Positions 3,807 to 20,000 of a stretch of 20,000 nucleotides of DNA are shown piece by piece. Made by a program: the position numbers and the translations under genes. The notes beneath the pieces are model-generated. The model was given only the letters and a program-made list of their open reading frames with translations, was not told the origin of the DNA and made no database searches. The stretch is from an uncultured virus (IMG/VR IMGVR_UViG_3300011202_000008). Its lineage: Duplodnaviria > Heunggongvirae > Uroviricota > Caudoviricetes. The stretch lies in the IMG/VR virus record IMGVR_UViG_3300011202_000008. The stretch is one strand, 5' to 3'. Position 1 is the stretch's first letter. The number at the start of each line of letters is the position of its first letter.

Positions 3807-4721
3807 TTACTCCGCCTTTTCAATATTAATAATGGTTTTTGCTAACTCTTTTACTTCCTGTTCTGAACCTTCTAAAACACAAATAAAACCACCTTTATGA
3901 CAAAAACGGAGATTAAAACCGGAGATATCTTTAAGTGCTTGCCCTTCTACTCCACACCATGCTTTAGGCATTCTTTGGCGAGAACTAAAGGGATCATTTA
4001 TATCAGAAGGAATAGATTTTACTGACCATTCCATTAACCCTTTTTCTTCATCTTTATAACCAGCAATATATAATTTTGCTTTTGATTTCTCTATAGCAAT
4101 ATCTCTACCACCCGGTAATGAATCATATACAATCAAAAAATCTTCATGATTACCATCAATACTTTCTTTAATAGCTTTCTCAATTTTTTCATTGTTTTCT
4201 TTTTCTAATTCAGCTTTAAAGATAAGATTATCAATATAATCTTCTGCTGCTCTTAAAGCTTTTCTAAACTGTTTATTTTCAATAGTTCTATCATCAGAAT
4301 GGTTGTAAGCTCTGAAAAACTTATTATCTTCCCAAATTTGTTTACCATTATCATGCTGATCAACAGTGTAAGCAAAATCTTCTAATTTCGAGATAGTATA
4401 ATCTGAAATAGATTTTAATTTTCCTTCTTTTTTTAGCCATCTAAAAATAAGACCGCAAGAAGATAATGGTCCACCATTTTCCCACACCAAGTTAGGATCC
4501 GATTGATGATGATCAAAGTTTAGTTTTTCAGAACTGTATTCACGACCAACATCAATAACAAAATCGTTACTGTTTTTGGCTACAGAAAGGATATTTTCAT
4601 CGCGGGTTCGAATAACGTTGAGGTCTTCCACAGAAACATCAAAATGAAATCTTGCTAACAAGGCAATGGCCATTAATTCATCAGCATGAAAAGAATCACA
4701 ATGGGTATAAATATTAATCAT
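3807..4721 (-). CDS. MYG1-family (UPF0160) metal-dependent hydrolase/exonuclease
   Basis: THCDSFHADE, IRTRD, DVG, FDHHQ, LSSCGL and FCHKGGF motifs. Confidence 0.88.
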   Translation of the reverse strand: MINIYTHCDSFHADELMAIALLARFHFDVSVEDLNVIRTRDENILSVAKNSNDFVIDVGREYSSEKLNFDHHQSDPNLVWENGGPLSSCGLIFRWLKKEGKLKSISDYTISKLEDFAYTVDQHDNGKQIWEDNKFFRAYNHSDDRTIENKQFRKALRAAEDYIDNLIFKAELEKENNEKIEKAIKESIDGNHEDFLIVYDSLPGGRDIAIEKSKAKLYIAGYKDEEKGLMEWSVKSIPSDINDPFSSRQRMPKAWCGVEGQALKDISGFNLRFCHKGGFICVLEGSEQEVKELAKTIINIEKAE

Positions 4722-15080: not shown

Positions 15081-15086
15081 TTATAA

Positions 15087-15138
15087 ATCTTGGACGACCA
15101 AGATATTCATTATTTATACAGGACGACCTGTAAAGGAG
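15087..15138 (+). ncRNA. Guanidine-II (mini-ykkC) riboswitch
   Basis: Two hairpins with ACGA loops, ATCTTGG-ACGA-CCAAGAT (15087-15104) and TACAGG-ACGA-CCTGTA (15117-15132), directly followed by the AAGGAG SD of an SMR gene. Confidence 0.93.
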
Positions 15139-15143
15139 ATTAT

Positions 15144-15464
15144 ATGAATATCTACTGGTTGTCTTTATTTTTTGCAGGTATACTTGAGATTATTTGGGCT
15201 TTCTTTATGAAGCAATCAGTAGGCTTCACAAAAATATTTCCATCTATTATCACAATTATTACCATGATTGGAAGCTTCTTCTTACTTTCTTTTTCCATGA
15301 AAAATATACCATTAAGTACGGCATATGTCATATGGACAGGCATTGGAGCTATTGGTTCTTTTCTTGTTGGAATATATTTATTAGGCGATTCGGTAAATAA
15401 TATAAAAATTATTGCTGCTATTTTTATTTTAATAGGTATTATTTTAATGAAAGCTTCTTCTTAA
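15144..15464 (+). CDS. sugE: SMR-family guanidinium exporter Gdx/SugE
   Basis: WLSLFFAGILEIIWAFFMKQSVGF and PLSTAYVIWTGIGAIG, four TM helices, guanidine-II riboswitch upstream; ATG at 15144. Confidence 0.9.
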   Translation: MNIYWLSLFFAGILEIIWAFFMKQSVGFTKIFPSIITIITMIGSFFLLSFSMKNIPLSTAYVIWTGIGAIGSFLVGIYLLGDSVNNIKIIAAIFILIGIILMKASS

Positions 15465-16528: not shown

Positions 16529-17266
16529 TTATTTTAATTTATTTTTATTCTGAACATCTTCGCCTATAATATTTTTCTCTTTTAAAAAACCTTTTAGTGA
16601 TTTTATTCTATTTCCTAAAGGAGGTTTTTTATCGTCATTTAAAAAATCATAAAGTTCGGTAGGATTCATAGATATAACATTTATTTCTTCAGATAAAACA
16701 TTTTCTCTATGTAATAATTTTATATGATTTTTATGAAAATAATCATTAACTCTTTCATCTTTCGCATCAGGATAAATATTTTTAATTATTTCAGGATAAT
16801 TTTTCTCTGCTATTTCTAACATTATTTGTTTTATTTTTAACCTTTCCTCTCCATTATTTATACTTGACATAAAACTACTAATATCATTTTCCATAGAAAG
16901 AGGTTTTAATGGATTAGTCTCTATTAAATTTCTATAAAAATAATTATCATCTGGATTTACTACCTTTTTTATTTCATTGGGATTTTCTATTACTTTTAAA
17001 ACCCTTATTAAATTTGATATTTGATATTCATTTAGTGATCTTAATATGTTTTTATTTTCTAAATTAGGGGTATCTTTGTATTCTTCAAATAAATGCTCAT
17101 TTTTTTTGTGTAACATTTTCACTAAAGCGGGATTATTTTTATATGGCTCAATAAGTTTTTCATAACTTTTTTCTAGTGATATTTTATTTAACTGTTTTGT
17201 TAATATATTTAAGTCATTTTCGTAATTTTGATTGTATTCCATGTTATTTCTCCAATTTTTTATCAT
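16529..17266 (-). CDS. Hypothetical protein; likely start 17242
   Basis: 245-aa ORF, GGAG before MEYNQ, basic C-terminus KNKNKLK. Confidence 0.6.
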   Translation of the reverse strand: MIKNWRNNMEYNQNYENDLNILTKQLNKISLEKSYEKLIEPYKNNPALVKMLHKKNEHLFEEYKDTPNLENKNILRSLNEYQISNLIRVLKVIENPNEIKKVVNPDDNYFYRNLIETNPLKPLSMENDISSFMSSINNGEERLKIKQIMLEIAEKNYPEIIKNIYPDAKDERVNDYFHKNHIKLLHRENVLSEEINVISMNPTELYDFLNDDKKPPLGNRIKSLKGFLKEKNIIGEDVQNKNKLK

Positions 17267-17361
17267 AATAATATTATATAGTTTTATTTTTATTTTAATA
17301 TAGTTAAGAGAAAAATTATTTTAACAATGACCATATAAAGATATTATTAAAAAAAATAAAT

Positions 17362-17390
17362 AAAAAAAGACACCCGGAGGTGTCTCTTTT
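17362..17390 (-). terminator. Intrinsic terminator closing the tRNA/ncRNA cluster
   Basis: Minus strand reads AGACACC-TCCG-GGTGTCT-TTTTTT. Confidence 0.85.
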
Positions 17391-17392
17391 AT

Positions 17393-17724
17393 AATGTTTT
17401 CCTAAAAAACATCCTATCCAGTTATCACTTTCGATCCGCCTTGCGCGAATACAGAATTATCTGCTGAAGGACGCTTTCTCAACTGGTTTATCGTCCTGAA
17501 ATTATTAGTAGGAGTGAGTTAGTAGCTTTAAACACTCTCTATATTTTGTTGATGGACCGCAATCACATCAACCAGACAAGTTTTAGGCGCTACTCTTGTC
17601 GGGGATTCAATGGGTTTATTTGCTATTACAACGCGCCTTCGGTTGTTCTTTTTTACTGTATTCCCTTTTTATACTCTAGAAATATAATCCAGTTTACTAC
17701 GCTACAGTGCATATAAACCACTTC
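17393..17724 (-). ncRNA. Candidate ~330-nt highly structured non-coding RNA, unassigned
   Basis: No ORF and higher GC than the flanks. Many stems plus complementary loops; lies between a tRNA CCA end and a terminator. Confidence 0.65.
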
Positions 17725-17801
17725 TGGTAGCGGGAGCAGGATTTGAACCTGCGGTCTCTAGGTTATGAGCCTAGTGAGATGCCATGCTTCTCCATCCCGC
17801 G
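17725..17801 (-). tRNA. tRNA-Met(CAT), initiator-like (C1:U72 mismatch)
   Basis: CGCGGGA...CTAGG-CTCATAA-CCTAG...GCAGG-TTCAAAT-CCTGC-TCCCGCT-A-CCA. Confidence 0.92.
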
Positions 17802-17877
17802 ATTATATGTTGAGATAATCGTATTTTCACCAACCTGTATTAACAGTAAATTCTACAGGTACTTCTACTTTCTCTCT

Positions 17878-17946
17878 TGGATGCTCCGGTAGGACTCGAA
17901 CCTACGATCTCCGGCTTGTGAAGCCAGTCATCTCCTCTAGGGAACA
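17878..17946 (-). pseudogene. Degenerate tRNA with anticodon CAC and a collapsed D-arm; paralog of 19082-19158
   Basis: CTGGC-TTCACAA-GCCGG AGATC GTAGG-TTCGAGT-CCTAC CGGAGCA-T-CCA. The 3' half is nearly identical to the 19082 tRNA. Confidence 0.7.
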
Positions 17947-18027
17947 ATTCATTCTTCAATTTCTTCTAATATAATAAAAAACATCATTTTATAATACATA
18001 GTCTTAACAAAATACTCTTGATTCTAC

Positions 18028-18363
18028 TTAGATAACTGTAACTTTCTTTCTTTCTTTAATTTCATCAAAGACTCTTTTTATAATTAGTATAATAATTGTT
18101 AGCAGATAAAAAATAGGGTAACCATTTAAAAGAAGCGAATCTATTTCTTTTGAGTATACAAAACCACGTATCGGAGCGTCAGAAAGAAACACATGAAGTA
18201 CCACATCAACACTGTCAGTGAAATAAACTTTTAAAAAAGGCATTGAGAGTAACGCATAAAAAATACCAAACAAAATAGCCCAATGTGAATCATTATTTTT
18301 TAAAAGTAAAATTATACTCATACTAATCATAATTGCCGCTGCTACTACATATACACCTACCAT
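18028..18363 (-). CDS. Small predicted membrane protein inside the tRNA cluster
   Basis: 111 aa, about three hydrophobic segments, GGAG SD. Confidence 0.65.
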   Translation of the reverse strand: MVGVYVVAAAIMISMSIILLLKNNDSHWAILFGIFYALLSMPFLKVYFTDSVDVVLHVFLSDAPIRGFVYSKEIDSLLLNGYPIFYLLTIIILIIKRVFDEIKERKKVTVI

Positions 18364-18385
18364 AATATATACTCCAAATTAATAT

Positions 18386-18574
18386 TGAGGCATTGACGCA
18401 TTACCTCTGTTACGCTACTAACTACGTTTGGGAAGCCCTTACGGTGTCGGTGGAGTAGCCCATTGAACCTACTTTTTCCACCCTATTTTTTTATCAACTT
18501 GCCTTACGGCGTCAGTGGAATGACTTGATAAATCATTTTAATCCACTCAGAAATATTCAGCTAAATATTTCAAC
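18386..18574 (-). ncRNA. Candidate structured RNA with two tandem pseudoknot modules and a terminal hairpin
   Basis: Repeats GTGG..stem..CCAC-YGAC-[GTAA hairpin] and covaries with the copy at 18707-18837. Confidence 0.7.
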
Positions 18575-18650
18575 TGGTTGCGAAGGCAGGAATTGAACCT
18601 GCGACCTCCAGATTATGAGCCTAGCGAGATAACCACTTCTCCACTTCGCG
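18575..18650 (-). tRNA. tRNA-Met(CAT), initiator-like (C1:A72 mismatch)
   Basis: CGCGAAG...CTAGG-CTCATAA-TCTGG...GCAGG-TTCAATT-CCTGC-CTTCGCA-A-CCA. Confidence 0.9.
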
Positions 18651-18705
18651 GGGTTGTTCTTGTAGGAATCGAACCTACTATTCTGTTGAATAACCAATAG
18701 AACAA
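18651..18705 (-). other. Miniature tRNA-like element (acceptor stem, short hairpin and T-arm)
   Basis: TGTTCT/AGAACA stem, TATTC-AACA-GAATA, GTAGG-TTCGATT-CCTAC, ending ACCC. Confidence 0.55.
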
Positions 18706-18706
18706 T

Positions 18707-18837
18707 TGGTGGAGCATTGACGCGCTACTCCATGCAGAGCCACCTGCTACGTTTGGGCTTTCTCTTACGAGGTCAGTGGCGTAGCCCCATGCGCATACTA
18801 CGTTTACCCACTCAGGATTACTTGGCATTAATCCGAC
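18707..18837 (-). ncRNA. Candidate structured RNA with one pseudoknot module and a CCA-terminated hairpin
   Basis: Homologous to 18386-18574; ends GGAGTA-loop-TGCTCC-A-CCA. Confidence 0.7.
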
Positions 18838-18894
18838 TTGTTTATTTATAGGAATCGAACCTATACTCTTACGAGGTTTACCACAACAATATAT
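18838..18894 (-). other. Degenerate or miniature tRNA-like element
   Basis: D-like GTTGTGGTAAAC, CTC-GTAA-GAG hairpin and T-arm ATAGG-TTCGATT-CCTAT; weak acceptor stem. Confidence 0.45.
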
Positions 18895-18904
18895 TCTTGT
18901 TAAG

Positions 18905-18927
18905 AAAAGCTACCCGGAAGTAGCTTT
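18905..18927 (-). terminator. Hairpin, possible terminator or processing signal
   Basis: Minus strand reads AAAGCTACT-TCCG-GGTAGCTTT-TCTT. Confidence 0.5.
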
Positions 18928-18973
18928 AAATTTGTTATAATACTTAGTTATGAATAAATCTAAGCTTTGTATT

Positions 18974-19081
18974 TGGTTTAAAGGTTTTGTTTTCACAAAA
19001 AATGGCTTACTGATTCATCAGAAGTGCTACCATTAAAGTCGGATATTTTCTTTTTCAAGCGAACTTGAACTTCCTTTAAAC
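18974..19081 (-). ncRNA. Candidate ~105-nt multibranch RNA immediately 3' of tRNA-Met
   Basis: GTTTAAAGG/CCTTTAAAC closing stem; TTCAAG-TTCG-CTTGAA, AATGG/CCATT and TTTGT-GAAA-ACAAA hairpins. Confidence 0.5.
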
Positions 19082-19158
19082 TGGTTGCTCCGGTAGGATT
19101 CGAACCTACGATCTCTGGCTTATGAGGCCAGCGAGGACAACCACTCCTCCACGGTGCT
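19082..19158 (-). tRNA. tRNA-Met(CAT) with A1:A72 and A4:A69 mismatches
   Basis: AGCACCG...CTGGC-CTCATAA-GCCAG...GTAGG-TTCGAAT-CCTAC-CGGAGCA-A-CCA. Confidence 0.85.
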
Positions 19159-19194
19159 ACTGAATAACTCATTGTGTTTGCTGAGTAGAAACGT

Positions 19195-19223
19195 ATAATA
19201 CGCTTTATTAAAATGCAAGTCAA
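19195..19223 (-). promoter_or_regulatory. Sigma70 promoter driving the tRNA/ncRNA cluster
   Basis: TTGACT-17 nt-TATTAT with an AT-rich UP-like tract upstream. Confidence 0.7.
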
Positions 19224-19255
19224 ATACTTTTTTATATATTTTTATTCATTTTTTG

Positions 19256-19328
19256 CCACCTTAGCTGGACTCGAACCAGCAACCTTTTCTTTCGGAAAGA
19301 ACTGCTCTATCCATTGAGCTATAAGATG
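19256..19328 (-). tRNA. tRNA-Arg(CCG); CCA not encoded (CAA follows)
   Basis: CATCTTA/TAAGGTG acceptor, GCTC-AATGGATA-GAGC D-arm with A20, loop TTCCGAA, GCTGG-TTCGAGT-CCAGC. Confidence 0.88.
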
Positions 19329-19400
19329 AGATTTTTAATTGAATATTTCCATTAATATATATTAAACTATCTCATAATACAACTAAAAAAGGTTCATAGA

Positions 19401-20000
19401 ATGAATGCAGAGAATATCATAAATCAAATATCAAAAGAAAAAGAAAGTTTCCTTGATCAATTCAATGAAAAAAAACGATTTGATAAAGAAACAAGAGATT
19501 ACTTTGATTTTTTAAGTTCAGATGATGGAGCAGCAGCTTTTGTTTTATGTTTTATGAGTTCTATGGTTATTTCAGCCATATCTGGCATCACTTTAGCTCA
19601 TCTTTTTCCAGCAATAAAGGATATTCTTGATGGTTTCTTTATTTTCCCTTTATCTATATGTTTTGGTGTGCTTATTGTTTTTACTGTTAATAAAAGTATT
19701 TCTAGACTTATTTTCAATAGACTTTATAATAACAGAGATAAAAATAATATTATAAGTAAACTTTTTAAATCTTATTTTTACAAAGCAAATATCTCTGATG
19801 AAATTCATAACATGCTAAAAGTTTATCTTTCAGATGATGATTATGTTCATTTGGTTAAAAAAGGAATTACCTATAAAAACGCATATAGTATTCTCAATGA
19901 AATTGTTGAAAACGAAAAGATTATAGCCAATAAAAGAGAAGTCTTTTTAACACCAGAAGAAATTAAAAAATACCAATATTCAAATAATAAGGATTCATAA
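19401..20000 (+). CDS. Hypothetical membrane protein with two TM segments
   Basis: 199-aa ORF with AAGG SD, ending TAA at the window edge. Confidence 0.7.
   Translation: MNAENIINQISKEKESFLDQFNEKKRFDKETRDYFDFLSSDDGAAAFVLCFMSSMVISAISGITLAHLFPAIKDILDGFFIFPLSICFGVLIVFTVNKSISRLIFNRLYNNRDKNNIISKLFKSYFYKANISDEIHNMLKVYLSDDDYVHLVKKGITYKNAYSILNEIVENEKIIANKREVFLTPEEIKKYQYSNNKDS

Follow-up and report, generated by a model that had tools for sequence, protein, structure and literature searches.

A pseudoknotted small RNA module beside a phage-like tRNA array is shared with plasmids of Pseudomonadota

Introduction

What kind of RNA, if any, is encoded in the roughly 330 nucleotides (nt) that separate a tRNA-Met gene from a transcription terminator in the uncultured Caudoviricetes virus IMGVR_UViG_3300011202_000008? 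We analyzed a 20,000-nt stretch of this IMG/VR record (the window; coordinates count from its first letter), and our subject is the segment 17393-17724, which begins immediately 3' of the CCA of the tRNA-Met gene (17725). An earlier note on this DNA had proposed that the whole segment is one ornate non-coding RNA with several pseudoknots, either a distant relative of the large RNAs GOLLD and ROOL or a new class. According to the passages of PMC5737381 that describe them, GOLLD and ROOL lie next to tRNAs in phage-like DNA and are possibly co-transcribed with those tRNAs. Is the segment one RNA or several, and which part of it is conserved?

Results

The 3' part of the segment matches a small RNA family of plasmids and viral contigs

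By scanning metagenomes, we found at least two near-identical loci (L001 and L002), whose RNA regions are identical to each other and whose downstream 237-amino-acid (aa) protein is 96% identical to that of the window. When the L001 RNA was searched against 72,556 plasmids with blastn, there was one match, on a 2.3-kb ColE1-type Klebsiella plasmid (74 nt, 79.7% identity, E = 4e-8), which covers the 3' part of the RNA and has compensatory changes in every helix. With the Klebsiella version as query, we recovered 29 plasmid records from Aeromonas, Pseudomonas, Advenella, Cronobacter, Escherichia, Enterobacter and others, as well as matches in 13 of 5426 E. coli genomes, nearly all on plasmids of ~4.9 kb. 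RefSeq annotation carries no RNA feature at the plasmid loci.

To describe the family independently of the window, we used a MAFFT alignment of 17 Pseudomonadota sequences from which the window and its relatives were excluded (A6), and a covariance model made from it (R1) in which the pseudoknot was left out; the E-values of R1 are rough, as its calibration was shortened. R1 matches the window at 17412-17505 on the minus strand with 75.1 bits (E = 1e-16), over model positions 1-96 of 96. L001 and L002 score 80.2 bits, known members 89-117 bits and one divergent contig 54 bits. The segment 17412-17505 is thus almost certainly a member of this small RNA (sRNA) family. From viral contigs, two scans with degenerate patterns brought in 11 member contigs in all. 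Nine of the 12 loci from the first scan were member-like by eye and three looked like chance matches in coding DNA, and R1 matched the same nine and none of the three; in the second scan R1 matched 11 of 40 loci, nine of them on contigs already present in the first. The homologous loci outside the window number 22 and lie on Pseudomonadota plasmids and viral contigs. R1 found no second copy of the module in the 20-kb window.

Four helices and a pseudoknot covary

In the family fold, H1 is a 6-bp helix that closes a loop of 18-20 nt, H2 varies in length and is often capped by a GNRA loop, H3 has 6 bp and a GCAAG loop, and H4 can be as short as a bare C-GNRA-G or form a longer hairpin; a strand 3' of H4 then pairs with the H1 loop to form a 6-bp pseudoknot. 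In the window, all on the minus strand, H1 pairs 17492-17497 with 17468-17473, H2 lies at 17451-17464, H3 at 17434-17450 and H4, a C-GAAA-G mini-hairpin, at 17428-17433, and the pseudoknot pairs 17481-17486 with 17418-17423. Alignments with the Klebsiella and Aeromonas versions place a further hairpin, H5 (AUGUUUU-UUAGG-AAAACAU, 17394-17412, minus strand), where those versions have a hairpin with a wholly different stem and a UUUGG or UUGG loop. The invariant loop motifs of the family (ACCRGWUGAGA, CAGC, GCGCRAGGCG and AGUGRU) are all present in the window.

To quantify the support for this fold, we counted how many alignment cells hold a base pair. In A6, 99.5% of 390 cells pair, as compared to 31-40% when the partners are slid, and both sides vary in 7 of 23 pairs. 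Covariation scores 0.323 as compared to 0.134 ± 0.015, and none of 500 shuffles reached 0.323. When the window was included (A8; 24 members, 23 distinct), 99.6% of 529 cells pair, 11 of the 23 pairs change on both sides, and the score is 0.374 against 0.153 ± 0.013. The A8 alignment was fitted to R1, and the pseudoknot lies outside that model. Nonetheless 98.6% of pseudoknot cells pair, with 14 GC and 9 AU at one pair and 19 AU and 2 UA at another. Covariation therefore supports four helices and the pseudoknot. The window itself keeps 6 of 6 pseudoknot pairs (CCAGUU/AACUGG) and, relative to the family CCGGAU/GUCCGG, has a compensatory A-U for G-C and U-A for A-U.

The earlier note had described AGGACG/CGTCCT crossed by CCAGTT/AACTGG as a pseudoknot, and this proposal now has covariation support in 23 distinct homologues. 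The proposed pseudoknot is therefore correct, and it is the core of a conserved RNA. Between the window and L001, the 3' part including the terminator has 11 differences and no helix is broken. In AGGACG/CGUCCU an A-U pair is replaced by G-C, in the next hairpin A-U by U-G, in the third U-G by C-G and in CCAGUU/AACUGG U-A by U-G; the other differences lie in loops. A long helix that the minimum free energy (MFE) structure forms in the 3' part (CGUCCU/AGGAUG) was rejected, since both L001 changes weaken it and H1 covaries.

On plasmids and prophage-like contigs, the module looks like an sRNA gene of its own, to judge from its flanks: in Pseudomonas-type members a promoter-like TTGACN-17-TAnATT ends a few nt 5' of H1, and a GC-rich hairpin with a U-run follows the core in the printed member sequences (both by eye). 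In an Aeromonas plasmid (L090, 2160-3088), the RNA starts 47 nt after the stop codon of a RepB-family initiator gene on the same strand, and there is no YjaZ-like gene near.

The 5' part is lineage-specific and joined to the module at a variable point

Upstream of the module lie 219 nt (17506-17724, minus strand) that are specific to this lineage, with hairpins at 17628-17646, 17575-17600, 17548-17572 and 17512-17537. The earlier note had called the segment dense with helices, and all ten complementary segment pairs that it listed are indeed present where it put them (the AGTAGC segment, given there without coordinates, is at 17521-17526). The density holds for perfect 6-mer complements, of which there are 28 as compared to 15.1 ± 4.9 in 500 dinucleotide shuffles (28 was reached in 6), but the folding energy is barely beyond that of shuffles. 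On the minus strand, the MFE of 17393-17724 is -76.0 kcal/mol versus -68.0 ± 4.9 kcal/mol (z = -1.63; 6 of 100 shuffles equal it), and on the plus strand z is -0.25. By themselves, the 5' 219 nt have a z of -0.92, and 36 of 200 shuffles fold equally well. As about 15 such helices are expected by chance, no single helix of 5-6 bp is significant alone. Lists of 5-6-bp helices in AT-rich spacer are mostly chance, and the real module is picked out only by comparing relatives.

This comparison treats the proposed 5' helices unequally. At the hairpin GTTGATG/CATCAAC (17548-17572), L001 has a different perfect hairpin, reached via ~8 changes, so that the pairing is kept; it is the only one of the 5' hairpins that shows compensated change. 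The proposed kissing pair GCGCCT/AGGCGC is not conserved, having lost 2 of its 6 pairs in L001 and L002 (the L001 loop reads GCAACU). ACAAC/GTTGT, GACAAG/CTTGTC, GAGTG/CACTC, AGTAGC/GCTACT, TACAGT/ACTGTA and GGATT/AATCC are invariant in L001 and L002, the only relatives compared, and hence carry no covariation information. The 5' region was compared in two distinct versions only, the window and L001/L002. Its first 143 nt are identical in L001; identity between the two is a mosaic along the locus, and the neighboring gene is likewise 97-100% identical. The 143 invariant nt are thus no evidence of constraint, and we rejected the argument from conservation for the 5' part because its invariance is shared with the neighboring gene.

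Comparison with the window by blastn and MAFFT also showed that L001 and L002 carry 172 extra nt (L001 4570-4741) exactly at 17500|17501 (minus strand), the joint between the 5' region and the module, so that the indel falls at the 5' edge of the module. The insert has many hairpins and GNRA loops in L001, and is the same in L002. It matches nothing in the window, phages or plasmids, and may represent an additional domain of RNA or else a small mobile insert. For the 5' 219 nt, blastn found no relative among phages or plasmids, and there is none beyond the close relatives. In viral contigs, an exact 26-mer, a two-part 3' pattern and an 18-mer gave 0, 0 and 6 matches, the six being chance matches in coding DNA.

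Conservation in related elements thus holds for the 3' module and fails for the 5' 219 nt, whose homologues are confined to the close relatives. Between the tRNA-Met CCA and the terminator, a structured non-coding RNA with a pseudoknot is supported, in the 3' part. That it is one unit of ~330 nt is contradicted by the 172-nt insert at the joint in relatives and by the presence of the 3' ~95 nt alone in 22 other replicons. Taken together, these data indicate that the segment is very probably composite and not a single RNA; the 5' 219 nt are probably a spacer or leader, or else a separate local RNA.

The module matches no Rfam 15 family

Over the whole window, Rfam 15 at gathering scores returned only five tRNAs and a guanidine-II riboswitch, so the RNA is in no Rfam 15 family, in keeping with the 'new class' that the earlier note had offered as one option. 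At E ≤ 10, searches of 17200-19500 and of L001 4340-4890 gave far sub-threshold rows only, which fell at or next to the terminator or, for L001, across the module; none of them was ROOL (RF03087), GOLLD (RF01998), RNase P RNA or group I intron. No tmRNA was found by ARAGORN, and there was no tmRNA row over the segment. Kinship with GOLLD, ROOL, RNase P, tmRNA or group I introns is therefore not detectable in these two regions. A tmRNA-like tag frame was also considered and rejected, as a 1-nt deletion in L001 shifts the frame (by eye). Five plasmid loci searched at E ≤ 10 or E ≤ 1 likewise gave sub-threshold rows only, mostly on the terminator.

Among the sub-threshold rows in L001 are RsmY at 26.3 bits (gathering score 57) and Ref1C, an Enterococcus sRNA 1C, at 25.8 bits (gathering score 90). 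The Ref1C row (L001 4726-4885) covers the whole module and the terminator and may mark a distant low-GC relative of the module. The RsmY row raised the idea of a CsrA sponge, which we rejected, as the window has not kept the GGA of the H1 loop. The motifs of a 224-motif RNA study should reportedly be contained in Rfam. On the basis of Rfam 15 and a limited literature search, the ~95-nt pseudoknotted sRNA family is apparently undescribed, and the RNA class, which has no Rfam family and is absent from the literature searched, is apparently new; it would be less novel if it proved to be an ordinary antitoxin.

A YjaZ/HtrC-family gene often converges on the RNA

In 17 of the 22 loci outside the window, the RNA faces a convergent gene for a YjaZ-like protein of ~140-190 aa, and 30-67 nt separate the two 3' ends. 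The plasmid proteins share 44-52% identity with one another and 30% with E. coli K-12 YjaZ (E = 5.5e-8). They are true relatives of YjaZ and match NCBIfam NF007263 at E = 1e-6, below its cut-off. In the copies searched they have no PADLOC or Pfam family; PF27200.1 is assigned to their relatives, some of which are called 'heat shock protein C' or the like. A table in PMC5864857 lists htrC as cargo of ColE1 plasmids.

In E. coli K-12 (L097, 4189786-4190487), the sRNA gene sroH (161 nt) converges on yjaZ with a gap of 1 nt. No paper in the literature searched names yjaZ and sroH together, and among the literature matches listed no functional study of yjaZ is apparent from titles and abstract openings. 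This arrangement resembles that of the plasmid members: a YjaZ-family gene is met at its 3' end by a convergent sRNA gene, and both partners are functional orphans. It differs in that no homology between the RNAs was detected: R1 finds nothing in the sroH region at E ≤ 10, and the Rfam sroH model (RF00372), which holds no structure save a terminator, has no match on the window, L001 or the plasmid loci (K-12 control, 201 bits).

An AlphaFold2 model of a YjaZ-like protein made with 49 relatives has a predicted local distance difference test score (pLDDT) of 92.7; a single-sequence fold with a pLDDT of 44 was discarded. We found no solved relative by sequence. In a wide VIA-align search with the model, 20 of the top 22 rows were chains of RelE, HigB, BrnT, YoeB, ParE, YafQ and related toxins, and we treat a RelE/ParE-like fold of the modeled protein as a lead. 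Antisense action on the yjaZ-like operon was rejected as a candidate: across 11 loci, the longest complements are 7-10 nt, lie in differing places and are no better than in shuffles. The lack of a conserved antisense match argues against simple control by base pairing and for action via the fold.

The module lies at the end of a probable tRNA transcription unit

The segment is flanked by the minus-strand tRNA-Met (CAT) gene (17801-17725) and by a minus-strand intrinsic terminator (17390-17363, with a 12-pair stem and a U-run), and we therefore read the RNA on the minus strand. This strand is also favored by G-U pairs, which would be C-A on the other strand, and by folding that is better by 12 kcal/mol. 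In the terminator scan, 17390-17363 is the only strong minus-strand terminator within 17200-19500. The other minus-strand row in that range (17733-17718) is a 5-pair stem on the tRNA acceptor end. The strong terminator also reads as a plus-strand terminator (17368-17385), and its L001 counterpart differs in the loop only. With a promoter-like TTGACT-17-TATTAT at 19223-19195 (minus strand) as the inferred promoter, the segment would be the tail of a tRNA transcription unit of ~1.85 kb. The 237-aa gene (16529-17242) is on the same strand as the RNA and begins 120 nt past the terminator; relatives of its product have 53-96% identity, and because some are on contigs of up to 1.37 Mb, the element is probably also integrated in chromosomes. 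On the plus strand, a promoter-like AAGACA-17-TATAAT (10/12; 17367-17395) overlaps the terminator and points into the RNA region, and one 56-aa open reading frame (ORF) with a TTG start lies at 17546-17716, so the description of the segment as ORF-free is nearly right, with this one exception.

ARAGORN calls five tRNA genes on the minus strand of the window. In the tRNA-Met gene next to the segment, the CCA is encoded and positions 1 and 72 are mismatched; Rfam scores it as a tRNA at 59 bits and marks its first pair as non-standard. Of the three tRNA-Met (CAT) genes, two, this one and 18575-18650 (minus strand), have the non-standard first acceptor pair C1/A72, a hallmark of bacterial initiator tRNA, and the element therefore carries several initiator-like tRNAs. 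The call 'tRNA-Val (cac)' at 17878-17946 (minus strand) corresponds to the 3' 50 nt of a tRNA-Met copy, which L001 has in full (4116-4193). A 457-bp segment (17928-18384) with a hydrophobic 111-aa ORF (18028-18363) is missing from L001 and L002, and replaces the 5' part of that tRNA-Met. The spacers of the tRNA array (18385-19081, minus strand), the 'upstream modules' of the earlier note, contain repeated modules of repeat families D3, D6, D7 and D8. At 18652-18681 and 18838-18867 there are two hairpins that resemble T arms, have GGTTCGATTCC-type loops and receive no tRNA call. These repeated modules and hairpins could be tRNA remnants or further structured RNAs.

At ~30% G+C, the window has the appearance of accessory DNA from a large phage or prophage, and none of 50,697 phage records is a near relative. 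Its products include a T4-type RNA ligase 1, a MYG1 exonuclease, two NUDIX proteins, a metallophosphoesterase, an R2K ATP-grasp protein, an ADP-ribosylglycohydrolase and tail-collar/shufflon-type fibre proteins. Neighboring proteins have no relatives in the viral contigs, phages or genome contigs searched. At 15086-15130 (plus strand) lies the guanidine-II (mini-ykkC) riboswitch (35.2 bits; gathering score 32), immediately 5' of an SMR/Gdx-type transporter gene (15144-15464, plus strand), within surroundings that are otherwise phage-like. The relatives of the SMR protein (51-64% identity) are nearly all from Pseudomonadota and say nothing clear about the host; a protein atlas yielded no match.

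Discussion

We favor the reading, to which we give a probability of roughly 60%, that the segment is a composite with a family sRNA at its 3' side, placed at the end of a tRNA operon as an orphan copy whose action depends on its fold. Read on the minus strand as the tail of the tRNA operon, the last part (17412-17505, the hairpin at 17394-17412 and the terminator) would be a small RNA of an apparently undescribed family. The first 219 nt would be a lineage-specific leader or spacer with a few hairpins, outside any rigid ornate RNA, or else a processed spacer or a local RNA of its own. The small RNA would be released from the tRNA precursor and would act by its conserved three-dimensional fold, not by antisense pairing. 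Its most likely target may be a protein, with the YjaZ family as the first candidate, and it would then work as an RNA antitoxin or regulator does; such a protein-binding or antitoxin-like role is a tentative proposal that we hold to be less likely than not. Since no YjaZ-like gene is nearby, the window copy would act in trans, for example on a partner borne by the host or a plasmid. This orphan copy sits among RNA-repair-type and possibly counter-defence genes.

Several observations weigh against this reading or parts of it. Both tblastn and a profile hidden Markov model failed to find a YjaZ-like gene in the 20 kb of the window, L001 or L002 (positive control, 1.7e-92), and the gene is missing in 5 of the 22 other member loci; the RNA therefore needs no YjaZ-like gene in cis. 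Foldseek found no match to the YjaZ-like model at E ≤ 0.001, and the RelE/ParE-like rows are weak (Z 3.7-5.0, root-mean-square deviation 2.6-5.1 Å over 69-91 residues), in a range (Z < 8) that may reflect a mere common arrangement. R1 found no member in 151 sampled Gammaproteobacteria genomes and 5 others, so the family is rare. The promoter scan supported a promoter in one of the two plasmid loci tested, and the terminator scan found no plus-strand terminator, the RNA strand there, in either of the two. The view that the module resembles an independent sRNA gene rests on the promoter-like site before it and the hairpin and U-run after it; in the window there is no promoter-like site before 17505 (minus strand), and a discrete species of ~130 nt is for that reason only assumed there. 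Lacking its own promoter, the window module appears to be co-transcribed with the tRNAs, the promoter being a trait of the plasmid genes and not of the fold. Finally, the 5' region may be functional after all, given that one hairpin is compensated and the 143 invariant nt are uninformative.

If the segment were instead one large ornate RNA, of ~330 nt here and ~500 nt in the relatives, the 5' hairpins and the 3' pseudoknot would fold jointly, perhaps through loop-loop contacts, as a relative or analogue of ROOL or GOLLD. A position next to tRNAs in a phage-like region would suit this idea, as it does for GOLLD and ROOL in the passages of PMC5737381 on those RNAs, and so would the enrichment of 6-mer complements, the compensated 5' hairpin and an L001 insert full of hairpins and GNRA loops. 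The same comparison with L001 shows the kissing pair lost and the indel placed at the joint; in addition, the 5' part folds no better than many of its shuffles, neither the window nor L001 matches ROOL or GOLLD at E ≤ 10, and the 3' module occurs without the 5' part in 22 other replicons, which together make a single ornate RNA quite improbable.

How such a module might work leaves two further accounts. It could be a cis-acting, riboswitch-like sensor in which a ligand or protein sets read-through of the terminator, into the 237-aa gene (16529-17242) in the window and into the antisense strand of the yjaZ-like operon on plasmids. The fold is compact and pseudoknotted with invariant loops and stands directly before a terminator in every member (terminators mainly judged by eye), a same-strand gene begins 120 nt past the terminator in the window, and read-through on plasmids would be antisense to the convergent gene. 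We nevertheless think a sensor unlikely: by eye, there is no conserved alternative antiterminator pairing between module and terminator, the spacer from pseudoknot to terminator varies freely in length and content with H5 present or absent, an AT-rich gap and a promoter-like site (17324-17297) separate terminator and gene in the window, and 5 of the 22 loci have no convergent yjaZ-like gene. Alternatively, the element might function in the form of single-stranded DNA, for instance as a signal for priming or replication in plasmids and phages. Its presence on plasmids of many replicon types and on phage-like contigs would fit, as would the Aeromonas copy 47 nt after a RepB initiator gene; against this stand the promoter-like site a few nt upstream in Pseudomonas-type members and the intrinsic terminator after all members (mainly by eye), the GNRA tetraloops and G-U pairs typical of RNA, and the location of the window copy inside a tRNA transcription unit. 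We regard a DNA element as highly improbable.

Among known systems, ROOL and GOLLD resemble the module as pseudoknotted non-coding RNAs of unknown function that adjoin tRNAs in phage-like DNA. Neither gave a covariance-model match, and the conserved unit here is ~95 nt, as compared to an average of 581 nt for ROOL.

Phage T4 encodes two stable RNAs of unknown function, C and D, in its tRNA transcription unit, from which they are cut. The likeness lies in a stable non-coding RNA within a phage tRNA unit; RNAs C and D are not known outside T4-like phages, whereas the module described here is common to plasmids of distant bacteria. Type III (ToxI-like) RNA antitoxins and convergent type I loci such as par of pAD1 pair a small RNA gene tightly with a protein gene on mobile DNA, and in par-type loci RNA and mRNA converge on a shared terminator. 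The close linkage of an RNA gene to a protein gene on mobile DNA resembles these systems. Unlike ToxI, the segment has no tandem repeats, with only one weak 14-nt direct-repeat pair shared between 17393-17724 and the array. Unlike type I systems, the partner in plasmid members has 140-190 aa and is not a small hydrophobic peptide, and the RNA has no antisense complementarity to the operon.

The ~80% identity and covarying pseudoknot that are common to a 30%-GC phage-like element and to plasmids of Klebsiella, Aeromonas, Pseudomonas and Advenella point to strong functional constraint. Phage-borne orphan copies of RNA antitoxins are able to defeat ToxIN. In a more speculative vein, which we consider rather doubtful, the RNA and the YjaZ/HtrC protein might form an unrecognized RNA-protein pair of mobile elements, in which a folded RNA, in place of a protein antitoxin, restrains a RelE/ParE-like protein, with sroH-yjaZ as the chromosomal analogue and the window copy as a decoy that disarms a host system. 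The pairing of this RNA with YjaZ/HtrC would provide a starting point for work on sroH and yjaZ, both orphans of long standing in E. coli K-12. Should the phage copy be a decoy, phages would have a second, structurally unrelated example of an RNA that defeats a host system.

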